Source: a virus. From it: DNA of 64,000 nt. Shown here piece after piece: positions 1,589 to 56,994 of this stretch (positions are counted from its first letter, which is position 1; each line of letters starts with the position of its first letter). The notes beneath the pieces are model-generated. The model saw nothing but the letters and a program-made list of their open reading frames with translations, was not told where the DNA came from and made no database searches. Both the position numbers and the translations under genes were made by a program. The DNA lies in IMG/VR virus record IMGVR_UViG_3300033148_002931, positions 6,738-70,737 of that record. One strand, given 5' to 3'.

Positions 1589-1589
1589 T

Positions 1590-4020: not shown

Positions 4021-4029
4021 TATTTTCTC

Positions 4030-40095: not shown

Positions 40096-40950
40096 ATGAA
40101 AATTGCAGTTACAGGTTGGAAGGGAAGATTGGGAAGTCAATTAGTAGACAATGATTGTTATATTCTTGATGTAGATATAACTGATAAAGCAGATGTTTAT
40201 TCTAAAATAAAGTTATTAGCGCCAGATGTTGTAATCAATTGTGCCGCTATTACTGATGTAGATGGTTGCGAAAGTGAAGATGGTTATACAAAAGCATTAG
40301 ACGTAAATTATTTAGCAGTAGAGAATGTGCGTTGCGCTTGTAAGGAATACGATAGCAATTTAATTCAAATAAGTACAGATTATATATTTGGTAGTAATAA
40401 TGGCGCATATTCCGAGAAGAACAGACCATTAGCACAAAGTAATGGTGAACCAGTAAATAATTATGGATGGAGCAAATTGGGTGGTGAGGATGTATTATTA
40501 ACTACAAATATTTATAATAATTTGATAGTACGTACTACTGGTTTATATGGCAATCCGGATAAACATGATTTTCTTCAATTAATACAAGAAACTGTGGGGG
40601 AAGGGAAAGAACTCAAAGTAACAAAAGAATTAATTGGAAATCAAACATATATTCCTCATTTAGCAAAGGCATTAATTTATGTTACTAACAATATTGAAAT
40701 TATACGCAATAATAAAGTTTTGAATATTGCATCCGAAGATATAATTAGTAGATATGAATTTGCTCTTGCTATTGCCGATATATTTGGATATAATAAAGAA
40801 TTGATTATTCCGTGTCTCAATAGTGAAATAGTAGAATGGAAAGCTAAGAGACCAAAAAAAGCAGGGCTAAAGACTTCTCTAGCAAAGAAATTAGGTGTGC
40901 CAATTTATACTATTGCAGAAGGGCTAAAAGAGTGTCGGAAAATAATATAG
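40096..40950 (+). CDS. rmlD: RmlD-like NDP-4-keto-sugar reductase (SDR)
   Basis: VTGWKGRLG, NCAAITDVDGCE, ISTDYIF, YGWSK. Confidence 0.85.
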   Translation: MKIAVTGWKGRLGSQLVDNDCYILDVDITDKADVYSKIKLLAPDVVINCAAITDVDGCESEDGYTKALDVNYLAVENVRCACKEYDSNLIQISTDYIFGSNNGAYSEKNRPLAQSNGEPVNNYGWSKLGGEDVLLTTNIYNNLIVRTTGLYGNPDKHDFLQLIQETVGEGKELKVTKELIGNQTYIPHLAKALIYVTNNIEIIRNNKVLNIASEDIISRYEFALAIADIFGYNKELIIPCLNSEIVEWKAKRPKKAGLKTSLAKKLGVPIYTIAEGLKECRKII

Positions 40951-41171
40951 AAACTTATATACAAGTGAGCGCTTGGGCGATGGATTTTTGGTATGCTTTT
41001 TTGGATCGTCCAAAATTTCTTAGGTGGATTGCTAAAATAGCTATGGGTAAATATGCTTATAGAGAATTATATGAGATAAAAGTTTGTTTTGAAAATGTTG
41101 ATCTTTTGCCTAATATTGGGTATTCTCTTAAACATATGGATTACCACAAAGATAAGGTGGATTTAGGATGA
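40932..41171 (+). CDS. Hypothetical protein
   Basis: ORF coupled to its neighbours. Confidence 0.45.
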   Translation: MSENNIETYIQVSAWAMDFWYAFLDRPKFLRWIAKIAMGKYAYRELYEIKVCFENVDLLPNIGYSLKHMDYHKDKVDLG

Positions 41172-41881
41172 AAGTTAGTATCATAATACCGTTTTATAAC
41201 TTATGGAATATGACTCATCAGAGATTGATGGAATTATTCAAATATGTTCCTGAACCATTAGAAATTGTATTAGTAGACGATTGCTCTACTGATTTGGATT
41301 GCAAGTCCGGCATGGCTTGGTGGCAAAAATCTCCTATTCAGCATGATGTAAAGTATGTATGGAACAAAGAGAACATTGGATTTGGTGGTTCTAATAATAG
41401 AGGGGCAAAGGCGGCTACTGGTGATATATTGATATTCCTCTCAAATGATGTTGTTATCAGTGGAGACTTTGTTCCTCGGATTGTGCAAATACTTCAAGAA
41501 AACAAAGATGTTATAATAGGAGGGCGAATAATTTATTGGGATAGTGGTTGGAACACTTTAGATATATACGGAAACAAAACCATTATCATGTATCCTGAAG
41601 GATGGTTAATTGCTTGTACTAAAGAAATGTGGAATAGAATTGGTGGTTTCGACAGGATATATGGCAAATTTGATGCAGAGGATATAGATATTGGCGCTTG
41701 GGCTGTTTATAATGATATTCCATTAATTGATTTAGAATCTCCATATTTGAATCATATATCTGGGCAAACTATTTATAAGATTTATCCTGATAGAATGGAT
41801 TATACTAAACGAAACATTATAGCCTTGAAGCAAAAGTGGACATCATTGTTAGAGGAGAAATTTGTCGATGACACTAAATGA
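41168..41881 (+). CDS. GT2 glycosyltransferase
   Basis: SIIIPFYN, VDDCSTD, NIGFGGSNNRG, FLSND, EDID. Confidence 0.9.
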   Translation: MKVSIIIPFYNLWNMTHQRLMELFKYVPEPLEIVLVDDCSTDLDCKSGMAWWQKSPIQHDVKYVWNKENIGFGGSNNRGAKAATGDILIFLSNDVVISGDFVPRIVQILQENKDVIIGGRIIYWDSGWNTLDIYGNKTIIMYPEGWLIACTKEMWNRIGGFDRIYGKFDAEDIDIGAWAVYNDIPLIDLESPYLNHISGQTIYKIYPDRMDYTKRNIIALKQKWTSLLEEKFVDDTK

Positions 41882-42212
41882 GGAAACTAAATTTGCAAAA
41901 GAAATAGGGGCAATGCAATCAACTCTTACTATACAAACTAAAGCGATTAATCAATTATCACTAGATTTGAAAGAATATATTAAAAATCAATCTGAATTTG
42001 CTCAGGAATGTGCTAGAGCACATTATAGAATTAGTACCCATGATAAACAATTAGATACCCTTACTATATGGGCTAGGGGTATAGATAAAATAATACCTTC
42101 GTTAGTATCTACTAATAAGATATTGATATTTATTGGTAGTGGATTAGGGCTTTCTATCATAGGATTGATTTGGGCATTAATTACTGGACAAATAACATTA
42201 GTATTTTCTTAG
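41862..42212 (+). CDS. Coiled-coil protein with C-terminal TM helix (XhlA/holin-like)
   Basis: Heptad N-terminal region and hydrophobic C-terminus. Confidence 0.45.
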   Translation: MSMTLNEETKFAKEIGAMQSTLTIQTKAINQLSLDLKEYIKNQSEFAQECARAHYRISTHDKQLDTLTIWARGIDKIIPSLVSTNKILIFIGSGLGLSIIGLIWALITGQITLVFS

Positions 42213-42219
42213 GAAAATA

Positions 42220-43503
42220 ATGAATAAAAAAGATGAAATATTAGAATTAGTAAATAAATATTGGTTGCCAAAGCAAGATAAATTATTTATACCAGGTGTA
42301 TCTCCAATACCAGCCTCTTTCCCTACAATAAATAGTGAAGATATTGCATCTGTAATAGATATTACACTTGATGGTTGGTTTACTGAATTCAAAGCATGTG
42401 CCCAATTTGGCAAGGCATTAGAAAAATACACGGGCAAGAAACATGCTGTTTTAGTCAATTCTGGTAGTTCTGCTAGTCTGGTAGCAATGTCTACGATGTT
42501 AGAGGGTAGGAGAGAGAAGTTTGTACTAACAACTGCGTTAGCATTTCCAACAACAGTAGCACCCATTTATCAAAATAACAAAATTCCTATCTATATTGAT
42601 GTGGATATAGAAACTCTTTCTCCTAATTGGGAACAGGCTAGAGATATGCTAGACGAACATGGAGATGATATAGCTGGATCAATCTTTACTCATACACTTG
42701 GATTTCCTTATGATGAGCAGAGGTTTAGTGTTGCATTAAAAGAGAAAGATAAATTTTTAATAAGCGATTCGTGTGACTCTCTTGGGGCTAAGGTGGGAAT
42801 AAATGGAGAGCATGCTGGAAGTTTTAGTGATGCAATGACATTATCATTCTTCCCCGCCCATCAGGTGACTTGTGGTGAGGGTGGCGCTATTTTATTTGAT
42901 GATGATGAGTTATATAAGAAGGCAAGAAGTTATGTTAATTGGGGACGCTCATGTTATTGCTTACCCGGACAAAGTAATGCTTGCGGAAAGAGATTTACAT
43001 GGGAAAACAGAGGAACATTACCTGAGGGCTATGACCATAAATATATCTTTGATAGACTTGGGTATAATCTGAAAATGACAGAATGGCAAGCTGCATTAGG
43101 TTTATCTCAGATAAATAAAATAGATGAATTTGTAGACATAAGACAATCAAATTATATTGATTTGAAGTTTAGAATTTGGCAACATATTTTTTTGCCCTCA
43201 ATTAAATTATCTCATACATCCCCATTTGGTGTACCAATTATGGTACACAAAGATGCCCCATTTTCCGCTAACGAAATGATAAAGTTCTTAGAGTCAAAGA
43301 AAATCTATACAAGAAGGTTCTTTGCTGGTAATATTACAAGACAACCCGGATATATGAACTTGCCTTATATTTATAAAGATTTAACCAATACAGATTATAT
43401 AATGAATAGTGGGTTCTGGATAGGTTGTCATCCAGGAATAACAAGACAGATGCTGGATTATATGATAGAGATGATAAATGAATTTGTTGAAAAGTATGAA
43501 TAA
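42220..43503 (+). CDS. rfbH: RfbH/DdhC-type NDP-4-keto-6-deoxyhexose 3-dehydrase
   Basis: VNSGSSA, DSCDSLG, SFFPAHQVTCGEGG (His in place of the aminotransferase Lys), WGRSCYC...CG, GYDHKY, GYNLK. Confidence 0.9.
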   Translation: MNKKDEILELVNKYWLPKQDKLFIPGVSPIPASFPTINSEDIASVIDITLDGWFTEFKACAQFGKALEKYTGKKHAVLVNSGSSASLVAMSTMLEGRREKFVLTTALAFPTTVAPIYQNNKIPIYIDVDIETLSPNWEQARDMLDEHGDDIAGSIFTHTLGFPYDEQRFSVALKEKDKFLISDSCDSLGAKVGINGEHAGSFSDAMTLSFFPAHQVTCGEGGAILFDDDELYKKARSYVNWGRSCYCLPGQSNACGKRFTWENRGTLPEGYDHKYIFDRLGYNLKMTEWQAALGLSQINKIDEFVDIRQSNYIDLKFRIWQHIFLPSIKLSHTSPFGVPIMVHKDAPFSANEMIKFLESKKIYTRRFFAGNITRQPGYMNLPYIYKDLTNTDYIMNSGFWIGCHPGITRQMLDYMIEMINEFVEKYE

Positions 43504-43627
43504 TGTATTCAGTAATTGATACCATAATGTTTGTGATTATTCCTTATATGATTTTTATAGCAATACTAATTCTTCCTCTAGCAATGATTTGGAAGATTAT
43601 AAATATGATTTTTAGAAAGGAGAAAAT

Positions 43628-44551
43628 GTGAGAGTAGTTCTTAGCGGAATATTTTATCCATTTGCAATGCTTTCCTTTTTCTGGAGAGCATTAGAACGCA
43701 GAGAAGATGTAGAATTATGTACTGTGGGGCCATTCACAGGAACGTGGATACCTTGGAATCATTCTATGGATTTATCTCCAAAATATGTTAGAACACCAAC
43801 AGTACCATTACCAAAAGAGGCAATACAACAACAGTTACCAGCAAAGTTTGTAGAAAACTTATTGCCAGGGAAATTCAAGAGCCCTGACTTATGGCTTCAG
43901 GTAGATGCCGGATGGCATGTAACTACTAAACCAGAAGCAACAGTAGTAGCATTAGTCAAAACCGATCCGCATGCTATTCCGAAGAAATATTATGATATTC
44001 CCGCAAGCTATTCTGATAGAGTATTTACAATGCAGACGCCATATCTCATTCCTGGCGAATTCTACTTGCCTTATGCTTATGATCCAGAGATACATTATCC
44101 AATGAAAGAAGTAAAAAAGAAATATGATGTTTGCATGGTTGGATTATTATATCCAGAAAGAAAAAGAATACTAGATATGGCAAAGGCAAGAGGATTAAGT
44201 ACATATTACAGCATAGGTGAAGTTTATGATGAGTATAGACTTCGCTATAATGAAAGCAGATGTGCAATAAATTGGTCTAGTGCTAAGGACTTGCCTACAC
44301 GAGTGTTTGAATATGCAGCAATGGGTATTCCTATGGTAACAAATAGAGTACCCGACCTTAATACATTCTTTGTAGAAAAAGATCACTTCCTCGGTGCAGA
44401 TACAATAGAAGAGGCGATGGAACAAATAATGTTTATTATAGAGAACCCTGAAGAAGCTAATAAGATGGCTTATGCTGCACAAAGAAAAGTAAAAGCTCAT
44501 ACTTGGAAACATAGAATAAATCAAGTATTAGAAATATGTAAGTTAGTATAA
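43628..44551 (+). CDS. CgeB-like GT-B glycosyltransferase
   Basis: YLPYAYDPEIH, YDVCMVG, RVFEYAAMG, HTWKHR. Confidence 0.85.
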   Translation: MRVVLSGIFYPFAMLSFFWRALERREDVELCTVGPFTGTWIPWNHSMDLSPKYVRTPTVPLPKEAIQQQLPAKFVENLLPGKFKSPDLWLQVDAGWHVTTKPEATVVALVKTDPHAIPKKYYDIPASYSDRVFTMQTPYLIPGEFYLPYAYDPEIHYPMKEVKKKYDVCMVGLLYPERKRILDMAKARGLSTYYSIGEVYDEYRLRYNESRCAINWSSAKDLPTRVFEYAAMGIPMVTNRVPDLNTFFVEKDHFLGADTIEEAMEQIMFIIENPEEANKMAYAAQRKVKAHTWKHRINQVLEICKLV

Positions 44552-44562
44552 GGAGAAAGAAT

Positions 44563-45465
44563 ATGAAAGATGTTAAAGATAAGATAAAGACATTGAAAGT
44601 AATTAAACATGCTGGAATACCAACAGAAACAACTACATTAGATGGGAAGAAAGTGTATAGACAAGAAAAGATATATTTGCCTAGTTATGGTAGATATGTA
44701 ATGTGTGCTCCTTATGATAACCATTTTATATACTTGACAGATACAAAAGGTTGGGCAATTATGTGCACGTGTGGAAGTGCAGGAGTAATTTCAGGCTATA
44801 ATGCTTATAAAAATGATGCTTCCCCTACAAGTGGAGAAGGAATAGTGCCAGGGGAGTTGCTTGTTTGTTATACTCATGCAAATACTGGGAGGCACGCTGA
44901 TGGCACAAGTTAAAGTAACAGTAAACATTGAATATTTCAAACTAAAAATGAGAGACAAGAAATGGCATATCTTTAGACGAATAGTAATTCCTAAACCATA
45001 TCGTACACAGGAAGATATGGGATGGATATTTGAGGATGAGAAAGAAGTAGATATGCTAGTTAGTTTCTTGAATGAAGCATGAAAATATTTGCGAATTTTG
45101 ATTTCCAGTTAAATGGTTTAGGATATTCAATTGAGCACTCTAGTGTTACAATAAATAATGAGTATATTAAAGACGTGGTACGTTATCATATTCATTATAA
45201 CGAAATTGAGTTTTTCGAATTAATTGGTAAGGGATATATAAATCCTAAATTTAGGTTGGATTGCGTGGACATTCCAGGGGAACGTGGTGTTACACATTAT
45301 TCTATGTATGCAGATCAAACATACGACTTTTCTTATATAGATATTCCTGAGAGTAAATTTCTTGAAGTTACTAAAAGCTTAGCAGAAATTGCATGTTGTG
45401 GTATTTATTATCGAAGCCATAGAGATTATCCAGAGGGTTATTGGGTATTATCTACTGAGGAATAA
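44563..45465 (+). other. Three hypothetical CDSs (44563-44913, 44861-45082, 45079-45465)
   Basis: ORF track. Confidence 0.5.
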
Positions 45466-45467
45466 TA

Positions 45468-46124
45468 ATGAAAATATATTTGATGGCGCAGGGTAAAGGT
45501 AGTAGATGGGAATGGAATAAGGGAAGAAAGTCTGCTAAGTATAAACAATTAGTCAAAGTTGGTGATGAACCATTGATTGTTAGAACTCTAAGACAATTAC
45601 AAGATAGAGGAGAGACTAATACTTTAGTTATTGCTGATGGAGATTTCTTTCCAAAAGTAAAAGAATATGCTATGCTCCAAACTAATCCTGAGCCAGTAGG
45701 TACAATCAATGAAGGAATATTGTCTTTGTATCGAGGTTGGACGGAGGAGAAACAGTCTGTTTTTTTATTGGGTGATGTGGTATTTAGCAACCAAGCATTA
45801 GATACTATATTGCAAAGTAATCGTAGCTTTGCAATATTTGGTAGGAAAGGAAGAAATAAATATACAAGTAAAGTAGCCAGTGAAATATTTGCAGTTTCTG
45901 TTAGAGGTTCTAAAGTAAAGTGGCTTAAAGAATTATTAATGATACTCAAACGAAAGGAAGCACCTAAGTTATGGGATATGTATGATGTAGTTAAATATCA
46001 ACAGCCAAACCCAATGATAAAAATTGATGATTATACAGATGATGTAGACAGTCCAGGAGAATACCAGGAGTGGTTCAAAACATTAGAAAAATTAGCCCTA
46101 GAGGATGATGCAAATTGGCAGTAA
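45468..46124 (+). CDS. Nucleotidyltransferase (NTP_transferase/LicC/MobA-like)
   Basis: LMAQGKGSRW...KQLVKVGDEPLI, LLGDV, DVDSP. Confidence 0.8.
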   Translation: MKIYLMAQGKGSRWEWNKGRKSAKYKQLVKVGDEPLIVRTLRQLQDRGETNTLVIADGDFFPKVKEYAMLQTNPEPVGTINEGILSLYRGWTEEKQSVFLLGDVVFSNQALDTILQSNRSFAIFGRKGRNKYTSKVASEIFAVSVRGSKVKWLKELLMILKRKEAPKLWDMYDVVKYQQPNPMIKIDDYTDDVDSPGEYQEWFKTLEKLALEDDANWQ

Positions 46125-46957
46125 TAGATTGTTTTAGTTTTTTCAATGAACTTGAATTATTGAGAATACGTTTACATGAGTTATCTGATGTAGTAGATAA
46201 ATTTGTATTAGTAGAGGCTACCAAGACACATTCGGGGTTAGATAAAGTATTACATTACGAAATACATAAAGAGGAATTTGTAGAATTTCAAGATAAGATT
46301 GTTCATGTTATTGTAGAAGATATGCCAATGACTAAAAAAGAGATAGAAAACGCTATTACACCACAGGATAGACATTGGCTAGATACTGGTTATCAGCTAG
46401 GTGATAATTGGGTAAGAGAGCGATTTCAAAGAAACGCAATAATGAGGGCATTACAAGATACTAATCCTAGAGATATTATTATTATCGAGGATGCGGATGA
46501 GATGGTTAGACCAGAGATAATATCTAATCTTGATGCTACAATGGTGGCTGGTTCTAATGCAGTGGGACAGACACTGCACTCTTATTATCTCAATTGGGAA
46601 TGTGTAAATATGCCTTGGTGGGGAAGTAAAATATTGCATAGGGAATTTGTAACTAATCCTAGTGAGCATAGATTTCATACAGTTGCCTCTCAGTATATTC
46701 ATAATGGTGGTTGGCATCTCAGCTATCTGGGTGGCATAAGTGCTATTCAAGATAAGATAAAAGCTTTTGCGCATCAAGAGTTCAATATTCCTGAAGTGTT
46801 CGATGTGATGGAACAAAAGCTTGCACAACAGAAGGATGGGATTGGTAGATTGTATGAATATGAGGTAGTGCCAATAGATGATAGTTACCCAAAGTATATA
46901 CAAAATAACTTAAGAGAGTTTGAACATTGGATGTATAATGAACACTACAAGATTTAA
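46115..46957 (+). CDS. GT17 family N-acetylglucosaminyltransferase-like protein
   Basis: DCFSFFNELELLRIRLHEL..VVDKFVLVEA..THSG, RERFQR, DADE, GWHLSY. Confidence 0.88.
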   Translation: MAVIDCFSFFNELELLRIRLHELSDVVDKFVLVEATKTHSGLDKVLHYEIHKEEFVEFQDKIVHVIVEDMPMTKKEIENAITPQDRHWLDTGYQLGDNWVRERFQRNAIMRALQDTNPRDIIIIEDADEMVRPEIISNLDATMVAGSNAVGQTLHSYYLNWECVNMPWWGSKILHREFVTNPSEHRFHTVASQYIHNGGWHLSYLGGISAIQDKIKAFAHQEFNIPEVFDVMEQKLAQQKDGIGRLYEYEVVPIDDSYPKYIQNNLREFEHWMYNEHYKI

Positions 46958-47639
46958 TCCTACCCCGAATGGTGCATTACACTTAGGGCATGTTTATAAT
47001 ATACTTTTCAATGAACAATTTGCTCATAATAACGGCGGAAAATTTTATGTGCGGTTTGAGGACACTTGTCAAGCTCTTATTACAGAGAATATACCTCCAG
47101 AACATATAAAACCAATTATGCAATTACAAAGAAATGATATAGAATGGTTGGGAATAGATGTTGATGTTTGGGATACTCAAGCTATCTGGAAGGATGAGGC
47201 AGATAAAAAGATAAGCCAATATATAAAACTTGATAAGTTACGTATACCTTATCCTCACAATATGCCGGTATCTATTGGGACAGTAGATGAATTTTATCCA
47301 TATACACCTTACCATACTGCGTTTCGAGTGGTTCTGGATAATATGATTGGTATCACTCATGTTATTCGTGGTAATGAGTTTTTGACTGAGTATTCTTTAT
47401 ATTACTTTTTCTGCGATTTATTTGGTTATGATGTACCACATTTTCTTTATATACCGCGGTTAGTTAGTAGTTCTGGTGATATTTCTAAGTCTCATGGTGG
47501 TTACTCTATTGCAGAATTACGCGCTTCGGGGTATAATCCAAAAGAAATAAGGAAACTACTAAGAGAATCTTGTTTGAAGTGGCCCAATAATGGTTGGACA
47601 TTCCAAAATCTTAAGGTAAACCCACGGGTTAATTTATGA
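46938..47639 (+). CDS. Minimal glutamyl-tRNA synthetase-like catalytic domain
   Basis: TRFNPTPNGALHLGH (HIGH), VRFEDT, ITHVIRGNE, ISKS (KMSKS), LRASGY.P. Confidence 0.88.
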   Translation: MNTTRFNPTPNGALHLGHVYNILFNEQFAHNNGGKFYVRFEDTCQALITENIPPEHIKPIMQLQRNDIEWLGIDVDVWDTQAIWKDEADKKISQYIKLDKLRIPYPHNMPVSIGTVDEFYPYTPYHTAFRVVLDNMIGITHVIRGNEFLTEYSLYYFFCDLFGYDVPHFLYIPRLVSSSGDISKSHGGYSIAELRASGYNPKEIRKLLRESCLKWPNNGWTFQNLKVNPRVNL

Positions 47640-48550
47640 GACGAGTATTAGGATTAATAATTATAAACATAATTTTTATTGTAATTCTTAGTATTGCTAC
47701 ACCTCATTTCTTTAGTAAAAGTAACCTGATAGTATTAGTAGACAACATGGCATTAGAGGCTATTGTTTTGTCTGGATATACATTATTATTAGTAGGTGGA
47801 AACTTCGATCTTTCTGTTGATGGTATTGTGGCATTAAGTGGAGTTTCTGCTGGGCTTATGATGAACTCTGGTATACATTGGATAATCGCTGTTATAGCTT
47901 CTTTATTGCTGGCAGGGATAATTGGGGCAATCAATGGAGTAATAGTAACTAAGATTGGTATTAATGGATTAATTGCTACATTAACAACATGGTGGATATG
48001 TCTTGGGATTACATTTGGAATGACTAAAGCACTTGCACCTTATGGTTTTCCTGAAGTATTTCAGTGGTTCGGACAGGTGAGAGTTCTTGGTTTCCGCTCT
48101 ATTATTTTTTATGCTATCGTGATTACTATAATTTTATCTATTGTCTTACATTTCACAAAGCTAGGATCACATCTTTATCTTAGTGGTGATAATAAGCAAG
48201 CATCAGAAATGATGGGAATAGATACTGCGAGATTAGGAATAATGACATATGTATTAGTAGGTCTATTGGCGGGATTTGTTGGAATTATGCTAACATCTAA
48301 ACTAAATGCTGCTAGTCCTATGGCAGTAGATGGAATGGCATTGCGAGTTATCGCGGCGTCTGTGTTAGGAGGTGCAAATTTAAGTGGTGGTAAAGGTTCG
48401 ATTGTAAGTGGATTATTAGGTTTATGTTTGATGGGCATTCTTAGTAATGCCATTATTCAATTAGGTATATCCCCCTATTTTCAAAAAGCTATATTGGGTG
48501 GGGTATTATTAGTAGCAGTTTTAACAGAAAAAATAAGGAGAACAGAATGA
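47636..48550 (+). CDS. Sugar ABC transporter permease (RbsC/BPD_transp_2 family)
   Basis: GGNFDLSV, GAING, IATL, IAASVLGGANLSGGKGSI. Confidence 0.93.
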   Translation: MRRVLGLIIINIIFIVILSIATPHFFSKSNLIVLVDNMALEAIVLSGYTLLLVGGNFDLSVDGIVALSGVSAGLMMNSGIHWIIAVIASLLLAGIIGAINGVIVTKIGINGLIATLTTWWICLGITFGMTKALAPYGFPEVFQWFGQVRVLGFRSIIFYAIVITIILSIVLHFTKLGSHLYLSGDNKQASEMMGIDTARLGIMTYVLVGLLAGFVGIMLTSKLNAASPMAVDGMALRVIAASVLGGANLSGGKGSIVSGLLGLCLMGILSNAIIQLGISPYFQKAILGGVLLVAVLTEKIRRTE

Positions 48551-49494
48551 AATTACGATTATTAGTTTATATTTTGTTAGTTGTTTTATTAGCGGGATGT
48601 GTTGGAGCTAATCAGCCAGAAGTAGTAGGTGTAGAAGAAAGTAGAACTGGAACTTATTACTTTCTAGCAGCGAATAATGCTGATCCATTCTATATTCCTG
48701 GCGTAGCCGGATTTACTGATGCAGCCGATGCGGTCGGAATGAAGTCGGAATTTGTTGGGCCAATGGAAGCAAGCACCAGTGAACAGATGAAAACATTTGA
48801 AGAGTTATTGGCTAATCCGAAAACGAAAGGTATTTTCTGGTATCCAATGGATACTAATGTTGGCGAGCCTTTAGTAAAAGAGGCAATTGCCAAAAATATA
48901 CCATTTGTAATTGGTGCTGCCGACAGTGCGTTTAAGACTCGTAATGCTTTTATTGGTTATGATAATACAGTTTTGGGAAACCAGGCTGCCGAGTGGGCAG
49001 CTAAGTTAATTGATTGCAAAGGTTCTGTTGGTACAATTGCTACCATTGGTGATAGTTTGACTGAACGTACAGAAGCATTTAATGCGCATATTGCAGAACT
49101 TTGCCCTGATGTAGAAGTACGTGAACGAGCATCGCATGATGGTAGTGCGGTTACAGCTAGTGCAACGATTGATGCTTATGTTGTTGCATATCCAGACTTG
49201 ACGTTACTATGGTTTGCTGATGGAACATCAAGTCAAATGGTGCAGAACTGGAAAGATAAACAGGCACAAGGTATCAAGACACTATTCTTAGCAATGGATA
49301 TGCCTCCTTCTACACTGGAAGCAGTAAGGGATGGTGTGTATGTCGGAAGCGTGGGGCAGGATACTTATACAGAAGCCTTCTGGGGTGTAATGTTACTTGA
49401 CGCGTTGAGTAAAGGTCAACGTGTTCCTGATACATTGTATTTATCGGTTATTATGGTTGATAAAAATAATGTAGATCAGTATATTGAGAAATGA
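48547..49494 (+). CDS. Sugar ABC transporter substrate-binding lipoprotein (RbsB-like)
   Basis: Lipobox LLAGC, DPFY, FIGYDN, ERTEAF, GQD. Confidence 0.9.
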   Translation: MKLRLLVYILLVVLLAGCVGANQPEVVGVEESRTGTYYFLAANNADPFYIPGVAGFTDAADAVGMKSEFVGPMEASTSEQMKTFEELLANPKTKGIFWYPMDTNVGEPLVKEAIAKNIPFVIGAADSAFKTRNAFIGYDNTVLGNQAAEWAAKLIDCKGSVGTIATIGDSLTERTEAFNAHIAELCPDVEVRERASHDGSAVTASATIDAYVVAYPDLTLLWFADGTSSQMVQNWKDKQAQGIKTLFLAMDMPPSTLEAVRDGVYVGSVGQDTYTEAFWGVMLLDALSKGQRVPDTLYLSVIMVDKNNVDQYIEK

Positions 49495-50237
49495 CCCTTC
49501 TTGAAATGAGGAATATCTCCAAGTCTTTTGGGGATATTCATTCTCTTATTGATATAAACCTTGCTATACATCCAGGAGAAGTAGTCGGCTTACTTGGAGA
49601 TAATGGTGCTGGCAAGTCTACTCTTATAAAGATAATGACAGGTTATTATCAACCTAATAATGGTGGTGAGATATACTGGAAGGGTGAGAAAGTAAAACTG
49701 ACTGTTTCTAAAGGTAGAGATTTGGGAATAGAAACAGTTTATCAGGAACGCGCGTTGGCGGAGCAACAAGCTATTTGGCGTAATATTTTCATGGGGAGAG
49801 AGATAACTAGAAATGGGTTTATGAAAATAAAGGAAATGCAAGAAAAAGCTAATGACTTGATGGATAGTATGGGATATAGTGGTTCTTCTATTACATCAAC
49901 AAAGTTAGTAAACACTATGTCTGGAGGAGAAAGGCAAGGTATAGCTATTACTAGGGCATTATACTTTCAGGCGGAACTGATAATCCTGGATGAACCAACC
50001 ATGGGATTATCTATTGCGGAGACACGAAAAGTCTTGGAGTTTGTGAAGAATATAAAAGATGCAGGAAAATCTTGTGTATTCATTGACCACAACATTTTCC
50101 ATGTTTATCCAGTTGCTGATAGAATAGTTGTATTAGATCGTGGGGTGGTAGCGGGTGAATATTATAAGGATGATTTGACGTTAGATGAACTAACGGATAA
50201 ATTGTATCATGTAGCACGTACAGGAACAATGTTATGA
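49491..50237 (+). CDS. Sugar ABC transporter ATP-binding protein (single NBD)
   Basis: GDNGAGKST, MSGGERQ, LIILDEPT, DHN. Confidence 0.95.
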   Translation: MTLLEMRNISKSFGDIHSLIDINLAIHPGEVVGLLGDNGAGKSTLIKIMTGYYQPNNGGEIYWKGEKVKLTVSKGRDLGIETVYQERALAEQQAIWRNIFMGREITRNGFMKIKEMQEKANDLMDSMGYSGSSITSTKLVNTMSGGERQGIAITRALYFQAELIILDEPTMGLSIAETRKVLEFVKNIKDAGKSCVFIDHNIFHVYPVADRIVVLDRGVVAGEYYKDDLTLDELTDKLYHVARTGTML

Positions 50238-51268
50238 ATTTTATGGTAGATGATGAATTTTTATTATTAATGAGCATTAATCCTGATTTAGATGTTCCTG
50301 GATATAATACCCAAATTCTTACTATAGACGAACGCAAAAAATTGCGGGATGTGGGGATACAAACAGTATTAGAATATCTAAATTGGGAACAGATAAACCC
50401 CTCATTAAATCAATATAATTTTGAAGAGATTAGTAATATATTATATAGAAATCGAGAAGCTAACATGAAAATTATTTGTCCAATAACGAATTGGAATTTT
50501 CCTGCCTGGATGCCAGACGAATGGTTTGCCAAACACCAAAGTGGAGAAATTGATCGCAGTGTACTTTCTATATGGCATGAAGATGCACAAAGTGTTGCTG
50601 ATGAATATTATCAGAACTTAATAAATTATTTTGGGGCTAATGATGTATTATTTATTTGGGGCGATTGGCAAGGCGGAGAGGGAATTTATCCCGCCGGGTC
50701 TTGTTTTTATGATGACGCCGCGTTAAATGATTATAAACAAGTTTATGGCACTTCTGCTTATCCTGATATTAATACCCAAGAAACATTAGATTGGTATGGC
50801 AAGAAAATTATAGAGCATTCTCTTAAAAAACAACAAATATTTTACCCTCAATGTAATGAGATTTGGAATATGCAACAATTTTTGATGGACACTTGGACAA
50901 AGGGATTTGGAAACTTTGTTATACCAGAAACATTCCAGGCATTTCGTAATAAATATCCTGATGATTCAATAGTATTCTTGCAATATACTTATTTTGATGA
51001 TGCACATTATAAGATACCTAATGAGGAGTTTGTAGATAATATCAAAAATACATATAATAGTGAAGTAATTGTAGAAGCACATTTTGCCCAAGGATTAAGA
51101 GAAACAACACCAAAAGCTATTGCCAAAGGATTTCGTGGGCAAATTTGTAGTTTATTACATGCACAAGCAGGCTATTTTGCGTTTGAAGATTGGATGTTGG
51201 AAGAAGTAAAAAAATCTAATGACTTGTGGAGAGAGGCAAGAATAAATGAAAATAATAACAATAGCTAG
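50234..51268 (+). CDS. TIM-barrel glycoside hydrolase-like protein (GH42/GH14-like N-terminus)
   Basis: LRDVGIQTV..LNWEQINP..NQYNF, FPAWM. Confidence 0.55.
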   Translation: MNFMVDDEFLLLMSINPDLDVPGYNTQILTIDERKKLRDVGIQTVLEYLNWEQINPSLNQYNFEEISNILYRNREANMKIICPITNWNFPAWMPDEWFAKHQSGEIDRSVLSIWHEDAQSVADEYYQNLINYFGANDVLFIWGDWQGGEGIYPAGSCFYDDAALNDYKQVYGTSAYPDINTQETLDWYGKKIIEHSLKKQQIFYPQCNEIWNMQQFLMDTWTKGFGNFVIPETFQAFRNKYPDDSIVFLQYTYFDDAHYKIPNEEFVDNIKNTYNSEVIVEAHFAQGLRETTPKAIAKGFRGQICSLLHAQAGYFAFEDWMLEEVKKSNDLWREARINENNNNS

Positions 51269-51989
51269 AACACTCAATGAGGAGCGGAATATAGAGAGGT
51301 TTTGTAATTCATATCAAAATATTTCTGACATGATTTTGGTGGCTGATGGTGGTAGTACCGATAACACGATAGAGATTGCAAAATCTTTTCCAAACGTACA
51401 GGTAAGAGAATATACAGAGAAAATAGAATTAGAGAATGGGTTATGGCGTAATCCTGATTGGAAACACATAAACTTTCTAATTGAATGGGCAGAAAATGAA
51501 GGCGCGGATTGGATAATGTTAGATGATTGTGACACTACTCCTAATTATTTACTTCAACAAGATGGTAGAAATGCGTTACTAGAAACTGACCTATCATTTG
51601 TAATGACTGTAAGTCTTTTCTTATGGGGTGAAGATATGCACTTCCCAAGGTTATCTCGTGCAGGTATACATGCTGTTGGGCATATGGATTGGTATGCGGG
51701 GATATGGGCGTGGAGAACTAATCAAGAAATACGAGTGTATGGTGACCCACCACACTTTATGTTTGAGCGTAAGAGTAAACCTGGAATAATGGTAAATTTT
51801 GATACTGAAGATGGGTTGAAATTAATGCCTCCATATTGCAGATTACATAGAAATAGTCCTACGCCTGAAATAGCACAGGAGCGTCAGGATTATTACAAAC
51901 AAAGTGGATTGATACCTGAGATGCTACACCCAATGGCTATTGGTGGAGCATTGGAGAAATTACCAGAGTGGGCGAGGGATAATGAATAG
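51246..51989 (+). CDS. GT2 glycosyltransferase
   Basis: TLNEERNI, DGGSTDNT, DDCD. Confidence 0.85.
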   Translation: MKIITIARTLNEERNIERFCNSYQNISDMILVADGGSTDNTIEIAKSFPNVQVREYTEKIELENGLWRNPDWKHINFLIEWAENEGADWIMLDDCDTTPNYLLQQDGRNALLETDLSFVMTVSLFLWGEDMHFPRLSRAGIHAVGHMDWYAGIWAWRTNQEIRVYGDPPHFMFERKSKPGIMVNFDTEDGLKLMPPYCRLHRNSPTPEIAQERQDYYKQSGLIPEMLHPMAIGGALEKLPEWARDNE

Positions 51990-52183
51990 AAATGCTTGTA
52001 TTTATAGATTAGATCATAACAATAATATGCGATTTGTTTGTAGTGGTAAGACAATAGAAAAGGCGGAAGAATTTCTAATGGCAAATTACAATCCTTCAGG
52101 TAAATCAGTAAATATAAATTGGACTGAAATACAGAGTACAGACTGGCGTGGTGGTGCAGGTATGTGGCATGGAGTAATAAAAA

Positions 52184-53209
52184 ATGAAAATTGAAATTCT
52201 TTGCAGCGATGGAAGCCCATTAGGTGTAACGAGTAAAACAATTTGGGGTGATAGTTTTCGTGTTGGGGTTGGTGGTGCTGAATATGCCTTACTGACTATG
52301 TGTGAGACATGGACTGAGGCAGGGCATGAAGTAATTCTTTATAATAATCCACATGAGCAGAATGCTTCATCTTTCGAGCAACGTGCAATTTCTACATTTG
52401 ATCCTAAAGCAAATAGAGATGTATTGATAGTATTTCGTTCGCCTAACCCTGCTGTACTTACCGCAAAGGGGTTGAAGGTATGGTGGAGTTGTGATCAAAG
52501 TAGTAGGGGTAATTTCAAAGAGTTTAGACCAATGGTAGATAAGGTGGTTTGTATCTCTGAATTTCATAAGAATTATTTCAAAACTACTTATAATATAAAA
52601 GATAGTATTGTAATAGATTTACCTGTTAGAGTGAATGATTATTTACAGCATGAAAGTTGGGGCATGGAGAAAACGCCTAATTCATTTTTATTTTCTTCTG
52701 TTCCAGCGCGCGGATTGAAAGAATTATTGGATATTTGGGGCAGAATAAAGAAATATAATCCTGATGCAATACTTACTATTACAAGTGATTATCGCTTATG
52801 GGGTGCATTACCATCAAACGATCACTTTAGAACTATGGTATTAGGTAAAAAAGACATACAATTTTTAGGAGCAGTTCCTAGAAATGAATTAATAGAAATA
52901 GAATTAAAATCAGAATGGTATGTATATCCATGCACTTATGATGAACTATTTTGTATAAGTTGTTCTGAGGCACAGCTTGCCGGAATCTATCCTATAACAA
53001 GTAATTTTGGAGCTTTACCAACAACCAATATGGGTACTGTTCTTGTTCATGATCCTGCTTCTATTGAATTTGGGGTAGGAACTGTAGAAGAATTAGAAAG
53101 GCTGGAAGGTAATAAAATGAACCAGCAACTTTCAATAAGAACATTAGCATTAAATCGTTTCCATCCTAACGATATAATGGAACAATGGGAGAATAAAGTA
53201 TTCAAATGA
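52184..53209 (+). CDS. GT4 glycosyltransferase
   Basis: GVGGAE, SSVPARGL, ELFCISCSEAQLAG. Confidence 0.88.
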   Translation: MKIEILCSDGSPLGVTSKTIWGDSFRVGVGGAEYALLTMCETWTEAGHEVILYNNPHEQNASSFEQRAISTFDPKANRDVLIVFRSPNPAVLTAKGLKVWWSCDQSSRGNFKEFRPMVDKVVCISEFHKNYFKTTYNIKDSIVIDLPVRVNDYLQHESWGMEKTPNSFLFSSVPARGLKELLDIWGRIKKYNPDAILTITSDYRLWGALPSNDHFRTMVLGKKDIQFLGAVPRNELIEIELKSEWYVYPCTYDELFCISCSEAQLAGIYPITSNFGALPTTNMGTVLVHDPASIEFGVGTVEELERLEGNKMNQQLSIRTLALNRFHPNDIMEQWENKVFK

Positions 53210-54333
53210 AGATATTATGGTTAAGCGATTTTGACTTTAGAGGTAGTGGTTATTACAATATAAGCATTTCTCTTTGTAATGGATTAGCACAAAGAGGACA
53301 CGATGTAAAAGCATTAGGAATGCACTATAAAGGACAGGAACATAATCACAATTTTTCTATTCTTCCTGTTTCTAATGCACAAGAAATATATGCAATGACA
53401 AAGAATTTAGAACAATTATGGAATTTTGATGTATTTGTATGTGCATTAGATATACCTCACCATGAAGGCTTTCTACATCAAGAGATTTTTGCCACTAGAA
53501 GTTTCCCTTATATAGGAATAACCCCAATTGAAGCAGACCCATTGGTTATAGATTGGGCAATGGTGCTTATGCAATTCAATAAGTGTTTTATTATCTCGGA
53601 GTTTGGTACAAAAGAGGCGCAAAGGTTCAATATACCTGCCGAACACCTACAAATAGGTATAGATACAGAAACTTGGCGACTGGCTAGTGATAAAGAGCGT
53701 GTATCGGGGCGCGGTGCATTAGGTATAAAAGAAGATGAATATGCGGTGCTTACAGTTGCAGATAATCAGGAGCGCAAGAACCTGCATGCTGGTATGGAAA
53801 TATTTGCAGAATTTGCTAAGGATAAGGAAGCTAAATATATCTTGGTTACAAGAGAATTCAATAGAGTAGGTGGGAAGTTACGTGCTTACGCTATGGAATT
53901 GGGAATTGCAGATAAGTTTATTATATTAGAGCGTGGAATGAGTTTTGCACAACTGTGGTCAGTTTATGTGGCATGTGATGTATTTTTATTAACCGCGAAG
54001 GCGGAGGGGCTTGGGATGATACTATTAGAAGCAATGGCAACAGGATTACCGTGTATTGCCACAAATTGTACCGGAATATCTGAGTTACTAGCCGATAATC
54101 GTGGTGTATTGGTGGATTATGAGTATACACATAGAGACTCGTTTGGTAATGGTCGCAGATACTGGATAAATAAACAGAAGGCAGTAACATCTTTAGAAAA
54201 TGTATATCATAATGGATTTGATACATCACTTGGTAGGCAATATGCAATAGATAGAAACTGGAATGTGGCTATTGACCAAGTAGATAAAGCTATAAGGGAA
54301 CTGGAGAAAAACAAGAATGTCAAAAAAATATAG
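53206..54333 (+). CDS. GT4 glycosyltransferase
   Basis: NQERKN, EGLGMILLEAMATGLP. Confidence 0.92.
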   Translation: MKILWLSDFDFRGSGYYNISISLCNGLAQRGHDVKALGMHYKGQEHNHNFSILPVSNAQEIYAMTKNLEQLWNFDVFVCALDIPHHEGFLHQEIFATRSFPYIGITPIEADPLVIDWAMVLMQFNKCFIISEFGTKEAQRFNIPAEHLQIGIDTETWRLASDKERVSGRGALGIKEDEYAVLTVADNQERKNLHAGMEIFAEFAKDKEAKYILVTREFNRVGGKLRAYAMELGIADKFIILERGMSFAQLWSVYVACDVFLLTAKAEGLGMILLEAMATGLPCIATNCTGISELLADNRGVLVDYEYTHRDSFGNGRRYWINKQKAVTSLENVYHNGFDTSLGRQYAIDRNWNVAIDQVDKAIRELEKNKNVKKI

Positions 54334-55171
54334 AAAACGTGTTAAGAAATCGCATGTAGCTACAATACCACATTCACGCACGTTACTAGATATAATAATT
54401 CCTGTTTATAATAGATTTGATTTATTGAAGAAATGCCTGGAGGCTATTCCCAAAGCATTAGGAGAATTAACATACCAAATAATAATTGTAGATAATGGAA
54501 GCGATAGAGAAATAGCAGATAAATTTTACAGTAACTACCCATTTGTAAAAATAATACGAAACAAGGAAAATCTTGGTTTCCCCAAGGCATGTAATAAGGG
54601 ATTTAATAGAGGGGTTTCTCCTTTAGTATTCTTTTTAAATGATGATGTAATGTTAGAACCAAGTAGTATAGTGCAATTAGTAAAGAATATGGATGATCCC
54701 AAGGTGGGGGTAGTGGGGATGAAATTAATATTTCCAGAGAATACTGATTTGCCAAGTGATGAGGTAAATAGACCAAAGGGAACAGTGCAGCATGTAGGTC
54801 TTACCACTAACATTAGAGGAGATTTTCCGCACATTTTGTTAGGATGGAATCCAAATAATCCTAGAGTAAATGCAATTAGAGAAATTACTGCCGTGACTGG
54901 GGCTGCCCTTTTGACAAGAAGGAACTTATTCTTGCGCGTCGGTAGGTTTTTTGAAGGTTATGGAATGGGCACATGGGAAGATATTGACCTTTGCTTTGCA
55001 ATAAGGGATATGGGATATAGTATAATAGTAGATGTAAATGCAGTAGGTTATCATTATACTGGTGCTACTGCCGTAACATACAAGGTGCAATATCCGATAA
55101 TACCCAACAAAATGCTATTTTTGCAACGTTGGGGTCGTAAACTAACATGGGATGAATGGAAGGTATGGTAA
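54317..55171 (+). CDS. GT2 glycosyltransferase
   Basis: IIIPVYN, VDNGS, NLGFPKACNKG, FLNDD, VTGAAL, EDIDLC. Confidence 0.92.
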   Translation: MSKKYRKRVKKSHVATIPHSRTLLDIIIPVYNRFDLLKKCLEAIPKALGELTYQIIIVDNGSDREIADKFYSNYPFVKIIRNKENLGFPKACNKGFNRGVSPLVFFLNDDVMLEPSSIVQLVKNMDDPKVGVVGMKLIFPENTDLPSDEVNRPKGTVQHVGLTTNIRGDFPHILLGWNPNNPRVNAIREITAVTGAALLTRRNLFLRVGRFFEGYGMGTWEDIDLCFAIRDMGYSIIVDVNAVGYHYTGATAVTYKVQYPIIPNKMLFLQRWGRKLTWDEWKVW

Positions 55172-56473: not shown

Positions 56474-56994
56474 GTTTAGTAGCTGTTGGTGGATTAAGTG
56501 ATTTTGATGCTAGAGTATTGGCATTAATGGTTTGGATTGGTGACAAAGTTTATCGTTCCGCTGATGCTAAAGCTAAGACACAGAGAATACGCTCTGCTAT
56601 GAGTTTGGGGAATGCTTACAAATCAGGTGGTATTTATGGTATTGATATAACAGTAGATACAGTAAAAGCACCTGAGTTTATGGCTTATGAGTTTGGTTCT
56701 GGTTTACATCGAACTAAAGGTACACCAGGTACTTACCGAATCCCAGACAAGGAAAGTAAAAGTATTTTAGCTTTTCATTGGGATAGTCATACTCCAGACT
56801 ACCCAACAGGGAAAAAATATCTTGGTGAGGGTCGAGGTGGAAAGTTGTTGTTTGCTTATGTAGACCATCCTGGCGTGAAGGCAGAGCCGATATTTGAACC
56901 AGCTTTCAATGAGGTAAAAGCAGTTGTTGGTGAAACAATAAGAGAAAGAATTGGTTTAGCTCTTGTATCTAGTTTCCGCGTAGAGATGTCATAA
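56470..56994 (+). CDS. Neck/tail-completion protein (HK97 gp10-like)
   Basis: YEFGSG, HPGVKAEPIFEPA. Confidence 0.65.
   Translation: MSLVAVGGLSDFDARVLALMVWIGDKVYRSADAKAKTQRIRSAMSLGNAYKSGGIYGIDITVDTVKAPEFMAYEFGSGLHRTKGTPGTYRIPDKESKSILAFHWDSHTPDYPTGKKYLGEGRGGKLLFAYVDHPGVKAEPIFEPAFNEVKAVVGETIRERIGLALVSSFRVEMS

Follow-up and report, generated by a model that had tools for sequence, protein, structure and literature searches.

To our knowledge, glycosylation of phage virions is known from only a few actinobacteriophages, which carry one or a few transferases. Glycans are present on the C-termini of the capsid and tail-tube proteins of mycobacteriophages (Freeman et al. 2023, as cited in PMC12619734, PMC13313380 and PMC11256854), and actinobacteriophages are described with one to a few glycosyltransferases (GTs), for example two in Maravista (PMC11256854). 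In these siphoviruses the GT genes are located among virion structural genes, the acceptor is presumed to be a cytoplasmic phage protein and no export machinery is encoded. A similar arrangement is present in the virus record IMGVR_UViG_3300033148_002931 of IMG/VR, of which a stretch of 64,000 nucleotides was analysed (bases 6738-70737 of the record; hereafter the window, to which coordinates refer unless stated otherwise). It contains a 15-kb island (40096-55171) which, unlike the actinobacteriophage systems, combines seven GTs with predicted dideoxy-sugar enzymes, a sugar importer, an aminoacyl-tRNA synthetase (aaRS)-like ligase and a barrel protein, in a phage of another host type and another capsid family. 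We put at about 0.5 the probability that this island is a cytoplasmic virion-glycosylation module, using also an imported sugar and an amino-acyl modification, of a lytic siphovirus-like phage.

In the spore crust of B. subtilis (cgeAB, cgeCDE, sps), CgeB glycosylates the small crust protein CgeA, encoded by the neighbouring gene, at Thr112 and on a protein shell inside the mother cell (PMC13577073, in the portion available). Since this shell is assembled inside the cytoplasm, no flippase is needed. The sps genes encode soluble GT2, GT4, DegT-like and RmlD-like enzymes. Like the spore crust system, the island contains a PF13524 GT gene adjoining a gene for a small protein (p116); p116, however, is all-beta, carries a Cys/His site and matches no solved chain, which gives no sign of homology to CgeA, and the shell here would be the capsid and not a spore crust. 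The island also resembles the CDP-3,6-dideoxyhexose pathway of O-antigens (RfbF, RfbG, RfbH, RfbI, RfbJ/S) in having a predicted E1/RfbH-type dehydrase and a 4-keto-reductase-like short-chain dehydrogenase/reductase (SDR), whereas it differs from the Rfb clusters in having no 4,6-dehydratase, E3 reductase, Wzx, Wzy or WbaP and only a weak nucleotidyltransferase match.

The core island and its conservation in the capsid clade

All genes of the island are on the plus strand and its boundaries coincide exactly with ends of open reading frames (ORFs), namely the start of the RmlD-like gene and the stop of the last GT2 gene (Table 1). Neighbouring ORFs overlap at 17 of 21 junctions, seven of them by 4 nt, and the other four are separated by gaps of 2-124 nt. 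The island has 21 plus-strand ORFs with a length of 60 aa or more, of which all but an 84-aa ORF at 51940-52194 were scanned against Pfam. A family was assigned to 15 of these 20; the ORFs starting at 40932, 41862, 44563, 44861 and 45079 have no Pfam match. Three GT2, two GT4, one CgeB-like and one GT17 enzyme make up the seven GTs, which are flanked by the capsid gene on one side and by connector and tail genes on the other. Hydrophobic or membrane segments are absent from all seven by hydropathy, and the sole multi-span protein of the island is the import permease. No Pfam family of a flippase, exporter, polymerase or priming polyprenyl-phosphate transferase was matched in the 20 scanned ORFs. 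An initial annotation, made from the letters of the window alone, had described a co-oriented and mostly coupled glycan island of 15 kb with these seven GTs, sugar enzymes, a GluRS-like ligase, an importer and a hydrolase-like protein; the exact boundaries and overlaps agree with it, and the Pfam scan and fold comparisons bear out the gene assignments.

An alignment of three capsid proteins retrieved 42 IMG/VR loci, whose capsid genes are 49-66% identical and whose GC content ranges from 36 to 65%. Island genes were counted in those 28 loci whose available sequence extends 6 kb or more past the capsid gene (E <=1e-6, at least half of the query aligned). Since only the 10 kb downstream of the capsid gene was covered in each locus, the later island genes are under-counted. 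Homologues of GT2a and of the CgeB-like GT are present downstream of the capsid gene in 23 of the 28 relatives, near-duplicates included, and counts for the other genes are given in Table 1. Judged from these comparisons, the core island (RmlD-like, GT2, CgeB-like, p116, GT2_4, GT4, GT4, GT2) is a trait of the clade. Two genomes, G001 (83.5 kb, with terminal repeats) and G002, keep the order of capsid, island, 226-aa protein, p125, terminator and tail-tube-like protein, and in both of them GT2b stands directly before the connector genes. The claim that the island lies inside the virion morphogenesis operon is thus upheld by the head-to-tail gene string of a complete phage and by the synteny kept in its IMG/VR relatives.

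The five exceptions among the 28 are L130 and L131, L134, L144 and L147. In L130 and L131 an insert of 8-9 kb comes first and is followed by p81 and the RmlD-like gene, and p81 lies at 19.6 kb in L134. In L147, a second terminase, an SPP1-type portal and a MuF set are present at 14241-18356, 3 kb past the clade-type capsid gene and after a Glyco_hydro_cc protein; this second set of head genes could represent a chimera, a tandem element or a satellite. L144, which is the same as G003, is a divergent member of the clade. In its island, genes for a GT2 and a cytidylyltransferase are accompanied by those of a CUT1-type binding protein and of two MalF/G-like permeases; the island ends with homologues of GT2b and GT4b, after which come connector and tail genes. 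No ATPase was recognised in the importer region of this genome, where a 356-aa ORF is without a match in the Protein Data Bank (PDB). The CUT2 importer of the window and the CUT1 importer of G003 indicate that sugar import has been coupled to this island twice, from unrelated ABC classes. Two capsid copies were seen in L142 (8603-9772 and 11228-12424, 1.5 kb apart), which are 60% and 58% identical to the capsid protein of the window.

Two enzymes of the island concern nucleotide sugars. The RmlD-like reductase scores 162 bits on TIGR01214, below the cut-off of 224. The DegT-family protein has the E1 enzyme 3bcx as its best solved relative (E 2.6e-92 over residues 5-422); its 'FFPAHQVT' aligns with 'FYPAHHIT' of wild-type 3bcx and places His at the position of E1 His220, where the engineered 3bb8 variant has Lys. 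It also keeps a C-x-C-x7-C motif ('CYCLPGQSNAC'), which we take to be the ligands of a [2Fe-2S] cluster, and it scores 413.5 bits on the RfbH model NF011936 (cut-off 423). An aminotransferase identity of this protein was rejected on account of the 3bcx match, the His and the C-x-C-x7-C motif. Together, the predicted E1-type dehydrase and the RmlD-like reductase point to a donor of the 3,6-dideoxyhexose type. No 4,6-dehydratase, E3 reductase or sugar kinase was found among the island genes, and because the first two are absent the donor pathway leans on the host. The candidate nucleotidyltransferase, which is below threshold in Pfam, matches NF041173 (6.8e-6) over its N-terminal 130 residues and has a homologue in 2 of the 28 relatives. 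With these steps missing or weak, the 'self-sufficient' pathway of the initial annotation was too strong a description.

Two further island proteins deserve mention. Across an alignment of 20 p116 sequences, C68, C70, C102 and H111 are invariant, and its predicted fold found no match (Foldseek best E 1.0; VIA best Z 2.3). The CgeB-like GT has no match in the GenBank phage records that were searched, 50,697 in number.

The mini-GluRS/TIM barrel cassette and its importer

Homologues of the truncated glutamyl-tRNA synthetase (mini-GluRS), the three ABC transporter parts, the TIM barrel and GT17 were found in none of the 42 clade loci, and a direct search of G001 and G002 for mini-GluRS was empty. 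On this ground the segment 44861-51268 of the window is an insert between the p116 and GT2_4 genes. GT17, specific to the window within the clade, has matches of 26-31% identity in 9 GenBank phage records, mostly cyanophages. A scan of IMG/VR viral contigs with a single mini-GluRS sequence found nothing, whereas an alignment-based query found 20 viral loci. A TIM barrel homologue is present in 16 of the 20 and the remaining four contigs stop within 1.4 kb of the mini-GluRS gene, which makes the association 16 of 16 in informative loci. Of the 20 loci, 12 also contain a permease homologue, 10 a binding protein and 3 the ATPase, and in 12 the mini-GluRS gene is abutted by a GT2. GT4 genes occur often, in one case as a fusion with an FkbM methyltransferase, and 7 of 9 cassette binding proteins carry a lipobox. 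By this recurrence, the insert is a mobile cassette composed of mini-GluRS and TIM barrel, usually with an importer and a GT2. The importer, the GluRS-like protein and the hydrolase-like protein, earlier listed as separate extras, are therefore better described as one recurrent unit.

The cassette loci belong to at least three other phage lineages and mostly adjoin head genes. In L020 (lineage B), PHROG matches to a minor head protein, a scaffold and a major head protein precede the cassette, which has the order GT4-methyltransferase, GT2, mini-GluRS, permease, binding protein and TIM barrel, and a head-tail adaptor, Neck1, a terminator and a major tail protein follow. An inserted GIY-YIG/NUMOD3 homing endonuclease (6413-7372 of this locus) separates the GT4-methyltransferase fusion from the GT2. 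L023 has Phage_portal, two ORFs, mini-GluRS, TIM barrel and a Phage_capsid protein, in this order. L011 and L021 are parts of one 340-kb IMG/VR record with two mini-GluRS copies about 100 kb apart and TIM homologues at each; these TIM proteins are named 'MAG: beta-galactosidase [Proteobacteria bacterium]' at NCBI, and the record may be cellular rather than viral. Among prokaryotes, one genome each of 185,579 species was scanned and 80 of 153 tblastn-positive loci were kept. Full-length members of the mini-GluRS family were found in three of the 80, all from Planctomycetota, each with a TIM homologue directly after (3/3), and the remaining kept loci look like ordinary archaeal gltX genes.

Mini-GluRS corresponds to the catalytic core of class I Glu/Gln-tRNA synthetases, with an HLGH motif and an ISKS motif of the form ISK(S/T). 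Its residues 9-55 and 128-215 align to residues 3-49 and 184-271 of T. thermophilus GluRS, and it ends near GluRS residue 271-295, so that the anticodon-binding domain is absent (233-239 aa, compared to at least 468 aa). The acceptor-binding insertion is shorter by about 60 residues (query 55-128 versus GluRS 49-184). Counterparts of R5, E41, Y187 and R205 of the T. thermophilus enzyme, which presumably serve in glutamate binding, are retained, while N191 and W209 are changed. The protein fails every NCBIfam cut-off for GluQRS or GluRS: 91.3 bits against 250 on the best model, NF004315 (GluQRS, 7e-26), 55 against 276.7 on TIGR03838 and 75 against 290 on gltX models, which places it outside GluQRS as well as canonical GluRS and GlnRS. 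About 95 clusters make up its family, nearly all of them metagenomic and several on contigs of 48-75 kb; the proteins have roughly 230-250 aa and are 32-56% identical. R5, H15, G17, H18, S183 and K184 are invariant in the family, and no Cys is. GenBank phage records contain no member of the family, only partial matches to full GluRS/GlnRS genes. Literature searches for a phage-encoded truncated GluRS or GluQRS returned nothing relevant, and titles and abstract openings of the literature on auxiliary metabolic genes and ABC transporters describe no such cassette.

Among known enzymes, GluQRS (YadB) and MshC are paralogues of aaRS catalytic cores that hand an amino acid to an acceptor other than a tRNA 3' end, and mini-GluRS shares with them a class I Rossmann core that has HIGH/KMSKS-like motifs but is without an anticodon-binding domain. 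In the GluQRS reaction, glutamate is esterified to a cyclopentenediol; in that of MshC, cysteine is ligated to an amino sugar, the product of a GT4. Mini-GluRS differs from GluQRS in being about 60 aa shorter, in its lack of an invariant Cys, in failing every cut-off and in always being found with a GH-like barrel.

This barrel has a predicted (beta/alpha)8 fold, and its weak Pfam match to GH42 is limited to residues 35-97. Foldseek relates it to beta-amylase 3voc (E 3e-13, TMq 0.67), to GH35 and GH42 enzymes and to a GH35-like beta-1,2-glucosyltransferase. In an alignment of 17 sequences, 'GE' past strand 4 is invariant and the strand-7 Glu is present in 13, with Gln in three and Gly in one; catalytic roles of these residues are assigned by position. 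The TIM family comprises 104 proteins, many with precomputed PF02449 matches. Identical longest-contig sizes suggest that 14 of them share contigs with mini-GluRS family members. The barrel has no match in GenBank phage records.

The three-part importer (47636-50237, plus strand) consists of a BPD_transp_2 permease, a Peripla_BP_4 binding protein and an ABC_tran ATPase, whose genes overlap by 4 nt. This trio is the same as in the CUT2 importers RbsABC, AraFGH, XylFGH and the CbpA system of C. thermocellum, but unlike those systems it is encoded within a string of phage structural genes. The permease is AraH- and RbsC-like in NCBIfam, under the cut-offs. The best solved relative of the binding protein is CbpA (7x0g, 9.5e-25), followed by arabinose- and ribose-binding proteins, and its Atlas neighbours are mostly CUT2 binding proteins of Bacillota. 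The ATPase has a single domain of 248 aa and matches only the first half of XylG (positions 4-236 of 513), and likewise of RbsA and AraG, whereas the NCBIfam models of its CUT2 homologues have 500-513 positions; no fused double ATPase is present. The lineage-B loci L014-L020 and L026 depart further from CUT2 systems, since no ATPase gene was found in them by tblastn. Permease matches in GenBank 'phage' records were rejected as precedents, since they resemble host DNA (ribose permease of Salmonella/E. coli).

Genome context and flanking genes

The IMG/VR record is 70,737 bp in length, has direct terminal repeats of 114 bp and is rated 100% complete. Its genome is laid out in two divergent arms. 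The minus-strand arm is devoted to replication and carries genes for a RecA-like protein, a family-A DNA polymerase (PolA), a DnaB-like helicase, a DnaG-like primase and a GH25 muramidase. The plus-strand structural arm has the order large terminase subunit (TerL), weak portal, ChaB-domain protein, capsid candidate, island, and weak tail terminator and tape measure. GC content in the window is 34-36%. No tRNA gene and no tyrosine integrase were found in the phage genome, and the single Resolvase signal (12.7 bits) contains an internal stop. From its gene content the phage looks lytic, and without an integrase lysogenic serotype conversion is unlikely. Perfect TTGACA-N16-18-TATAAT sites occur three times in the 64 kb window against 0.19 expected, a number reached in 0 of 100 shuffles; two of them lie back to back at the arm junction.

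Lipoprotein anchoring, the GC content of 34-36%, the GH25 lysin and the sigma-70 promoters suggest that the host is a monoderm low-GC bacterium. TerL (30453-31964) has its best partial matches among GenBank phages in Methanoculleus viruses (32.6% over half of the protein); no match there reaches 60% identity, and a coverage of 80% of TerL is not attained in any of the 391 records. An archaeal host was rejected because the phage has a muramidase of the GH25 family and perfect sigma-70 promoters and because its DnaB, DnaG and PolA are of bacterial type.

As to the flanks of the island, the assignment of TerL is clear (phrog_979, 1.4e-39) and that of the capsid protein comes from its Atlas score, whereas PHROGs give weak matches for the portal, the tail terminator and the tape measure. 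The labels 'holin' and 'head-tail adaptor' given to flanking genes in the initial annotation have only position and hydropathy as their basis. The capsid candidate, placed after TerL, portal and ChaB-domain protein, has no Pfam or PHROG match and none among the GenBank phage records; a PHROG search of 10 flank ORFs was empty, the capsid candidate and the 226-aa protein being among them, and the latter has no Pfam match either. Homologues of the 226-aa protein occupy the corresponding place in G001 and G002, after the island and before p125, the tail terminator and the tail-tube-like gene.

Some smaller features were also observed. The 503-aa ChaB protein is conserved in the clade and occupies the spot expected for a scaffold or protease. 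A hairpin with a 14-bp stem (37084-37114) begins 10 nt past the capsid stop, with a T-run on the minus strand only, and may be an RNA-stabilising or attenuating element. The Cys-rich p81, which matches no family, shares an 'SCCGG' motif with the small ORF 57308-57622, and the paralogous small proteins of 39154-39504 and 39854-40084 each have an N-terminal membrane segment and a common C-terminal block (...CVEQGYTG...NIEELRKK). Outside the window, bases 1-6789 of the record (G000:C1) encode two large tail-fibre-like proteins (688 and 1087 aa) as well as a possible depolymerase of 306 aa, whose NEP and ETS motifs are characteristic of clan GH-A glycosidases.

Table 1. Positions and database matches of the features discussed, with the number of the 28 relatives in which a homologue was counted.
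Feature	Position	Strand	Match or remark	Relatives (of 28)
Perfect sigma-70 consensus site, arm junction	28995-29022	-	divergent, back to back with the next	
Perfect sigma-70 consensus site, arm junction	29055-29082	+	divergent, back to back with the previous	
ChaB-domain protein, 503 aa	34287-35798		N-terminal PF06150, 2.7e-9; between portal and capsid genes	
Major capsid protein candidate, 404 aa	35860-37074	+	0.98 versus Atlas clusters carrying SU10_MCP; upstream anchor	
Perfect sigma-70 consensus promoter-like site	37781-37808	+	after 215-aa post-capsid gene, upstream of small-ORF block and island	
p81, Cys-rich, 81 aa	38187-38432	+	tblastn homologues in most relatives, always upstream of RmlD-like/GT2 genes	
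RmlD-like NDP-4-keto-sugar reductase	40096-40950	+	PF04321 (RmlD_sub_bind), 1.6e-49	20
GT2a (core)	41168-41881	+	PF00535, 6e-22; no transmembrane segment	23
116-aa protein	41862-42212	+	one C-terminal hydrophobic segment (residues 85-109); no Pfam match	
Predicted E1/RfbH-type PMP-dependent NDP-4-keto-6-deoxyhexose 3-dehydrase	42220-43503	+	DegT Pfam match, 2.6e-62	12
CgeB-like GT (core)	43628-44551	+	PF13524, 4.9e-23	23
p116, small all-beta protein	44563-44913	+	downstream of CgeB-like gene across clade; AlphaFold2 (AF2) pLDDT 76	22 (22 of the 23 with CgeB-like gene)
Candidate sugar-1-phosphate nucleotidyltransferase, weak	45468-46124	+	PF12804 (NTP_transf_3), 3.3e-5, 24.6 bits, below cut-off 27	2
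GT17-family GT	46115-46957	+	PF04724, 4.1e-22	
Mini-GluRS	46920-47639	+	PF00749 (tRNA-synt_1c), 9e-28; likely start ATG 46938, giving 233 aa (full ORF 239 aa)	
CUT2-type ABC permease	47636-48550	+	PF02653, 1.2e-34; at least 6 hydrophobic segments	
Lipoprotein sugar-binding protein	48547-49494	+	PF13407, 4e-33; lipobox LLAGC	
Single-domain ABC ATPase, 248 aa	49491-50237	+	PF00005, 1.1e-29	
GH-like (beta/alpha)8 TIM barrel	50234-51268	+	AF2 pLDDT 87.7; weak GH42 N-terminus in Pfam, 21.5 bits versus cut-off 21	
GT2_4 (Glyco_tranf_2_4; core)	51246-51989	+	PF13704, 1.7e-6, 28.8 bits versus cut-off 27.5	14
GT4a (core)	52184-53209	+	PF00534, 1.8e-8	11 (within covered DNA)
GT4b (core)	53206-54333	+	PF00534, 4.2e-19	7 (within covered DNA)
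GT2b (core), last island gene	54317-55171	+	PF00535, 5.4e-24	10 (within covered DNA)
226-aa protein, putative head-tail connector	55419-56099	+	by position only; first conserved gene past the island	
Tail terminator candidate	56994-57392	+	phrog_176, E 0.0014; downstream anchor	
Tail-tube-like protein, 207 aa	57633-58256	+	42-44% identical in G001, G002, G003; downstream anchor	
Importer region of G003	6095-10281 of L150 (G003:C1:57400-74352)		cytidylyltransferase, CUT1 binding protein, two permeases	

Proposed role and competing explanations

From the gene content, the solubility of the GTs, the motifs, the synteny and the recurrence described above, we infer an acceptor, sugars, an amino acid and a course of reactions as follows. 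The soluble phage GTs would build an oligosaccharide in the cytoplasm, during infection, on a phage protein, for which the capsid protein, another surface protein or p116 are candidates. The core set of a GT2, the CgeB-like enzyme, GT2_4, two GT4 and a GT2 would carry out the transfers; by analogy with CgeB and CgeA, the CgeB-like enzyme may start the chain on the protein, and p116 may be its acceptor or a zinc-binding helper. The E1 dehydrase and the RmlD-like reductase would supply the 3,6-dideoxyhexose-type donor from a host-made NDP-4-keto-6-deoxyhexose. A monosaccharide-like substrate would be brought in by the CUT2 importer and be hydrolysed, processed or transferred by the GH-like barrel. 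Mini-GluRS would use ATP, and no tRNA, to activate an acidic amino acid (most probably glutamate) and attach it, as an ester or an amide, to a hydroxyl or amino group on a sugar of the glycan or of a glycan precursor, much as GluQRS does with a diol and MshC with an amino sugar. The presence of the core island after the capsid gene in most relatives fits such a virion-linked role better than that of a recently acquired add-on.

Several observations weigh against a role in virion glycosylation. The capsid C-terminus is conserved, not rich in Ser/Thr and without an obvious glycan-bearing tail, unlike the glycosylated C-terminus of mycobacteriophage capsids. The flexible loop of p116 has a Ser in the majority of homologues, yet 5 of 20 have no such loop, which makes p116 as the acceptor only a lead. 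The promoter-like site at 37781 could drive early and not late expression, and a membrane importer would be more useful early. Near-duplicates among the 42 clade loci (L112-114, L125-128, L130/131, L135/145, L132/147 and L136/137) reduce the independent support below 23 of 28. The cassette of L026, with 42% GT2_4 and 47% TIM homologues, follows a DNA polymerase and a UvsX-like recombinase, and the Planctomycetota pairs have an SDR upstream in two of three cases and methyltransferases nearby, and no phage genes were noticed around them. Lipid-linked polymers of the host can likewise be substrates of soluble GTs: TarM, TarS and TarP are cytoplasmic GTs that glycosylate lipid-linked teichoic acid, which the host exports later.

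That last point leads to the main competing explanation, in which phage enzymes modify a lipid-carried glycopolymer of the host (wall teichoic acid, capsule or S-layer glycan) that the host then exports, the importer feeding the pathway and the effect being a block to superinfection or the freeing of progeny from debris. We consider it unlikely, though to be taken seriously. With carrier and exporter supplied by the host, soluble GT2 and GT4 enzymes could do without a phage-encoded flippase, as is the case for TarM, TarS and the prophage-encoded TarP of Staphylococcus; hence, although the absence of a flippase and polymerase noted in the initial annotation stands for the scanned ORFs, its conclusion of a cytoplasmic acceptor is weaker than was stated. 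The E1/RfbH assignment is strong and 3,6-dideoxyhexoses are classic surface-antigen sugars, a strong sigma-70-type promoter precedes the block, and the same idea has been proposed, in the available portion of the report, for GTs between the portal and capsid genes of 'Gratiaviridae' (PMC8008677). However, with no integrase there would be no lysogenic conversion, the late-operon location leaves little time for a change of the surface, and neither a priming transferase nor a flippase, polymerase or exporter was found in the island. Moreover, six to seven GTs adjoining the capsid gene across a clade with a GC content of 36-65% are hard to fit to host-specific polymers. The cassette might instead make or salvage a soluble small molecule unrelated to the virion, such as an amino-acyl glycoside or a scavenged nutrient, and hitch-hike in permissive spots. 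The mycothiol route, which pairs a GT4 with the CysRS-like MshC, is a model for the former. Such a role would agree with the mini-GluRS/TIM pairs beside SDR and methyltransferase genes in Planctomycetota chromosomes, with the pair on the 340-kb record without nearby head genes, with the position of the L026 cassette at the end of a replication arm and with a strand-7 Glu in only 13 of 17 barrels. We find it rather improbable, as a GT2 abuts mini-GluRS in 12 of 20 viral loci with GT4 genes frequent, the cassette stands among head genes in lineages B and C, and in the window it is set between two genes of the core island, with stop and start codons overlapping, and has a codon usage identical to its neighbours (r 0.90-0.96).

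The remaining explanations concern single components or the assembly. Mini-GluRS could be a GluQRS-like tRNA modifier or a tRNA charger that reprograms host translation, its link to sugar genes being incidental; the best NCBIfam model is indeed that of GluQRS, and both proteins are without an anticodon-binding domain. This is very unlikely in view of the score of 91 bits against a cut-off of 250, an acceptor-binding insertion shortened by about 60 residues and the constant presence of the GH-like barrel (16/16 informative viral and 3/3 cellular loci), in a phage without tRNA genes and without tRNA-guanine transglycosylase (TGT). GluQRS also has a zinc site, whereas no Cys is invariant in the mini-GluRS family. 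Glycosylation of phage DNA, named in the initial annotation as an alternative target, has precedents in the GTs of DNA-hypermodifying phages (bioRxiv 10.1101/2023.12.21.572611; PMC12619734, in the portions available). It has become a slight prospect here: thymidylate-synthase-type hydroxymethylase (PF00303), C5-methyltransferase (PF00145) and TGT/DpdA (PF01702) are absent from the complete genome by searches whose controls worked (a search for PF12851, Tet_JBP, gave no control signal), and the island lies in the structural arm and not with PolA, DnaB and DnaG on the opposite strand. Finally, ABC importers and E1 dehydrases are typical cellular genes, and bacterial glycan genes might have been mis-joined into a phage contig, a chimeric assembly which the initial annotation had itself raised. 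This is hardly credible, since 23 of 28 relatives, which come from other assemblies, have the core island at the corresponding position, genes of the clade core with overlapping ORFs stand on both sides of the cassette and the cassette recurs in 16 other viral loci; GC at third codon positions (GC3, 0.23-0.26) and codon usage (r 0.90-0.96) are alike across head, core island, cassette and tail genes, and strand skew is uniform.

Returning to glycosylation of the virion, a more specific proposal for the cassette is that mini-GluRS would be a tRNA-independent amino-acid:carbohydrate ligase of a new aaRS-derived class, which together with the barrel and the importer would install a glutamyl sugar on the virion glycan. 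We hold this proposal to be doubtful. Within it, the barrel could be a transglycosylase that takes the imported sugar as its direct substrate, by a route without nucleotide sugars, and a portable kit for import, transfer and aminoacylation would have been plugged repeatedly into capsid-proximal glycosylation islands.

What distinguishes this locus is a clade of uncultivated phages (42 loci, GC 36-65%) with a glycan island of six to seven enzymes after the capsid gene. If the island does decorate the virion, elaborate glycan coats on phages would be widespread and old, which bears on the stability, adsorption and immune recognition of phages and on their use in therapy. The cassette may be a new enzyme system, made of two families of about 100 clusters each that are always found together and are absent from the 50,697 phage records. 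It is a candidate for a new aaRS-derived ligase and, if this holds true, the phage would be a rare case of a virus that imports building blocks for its own particle.

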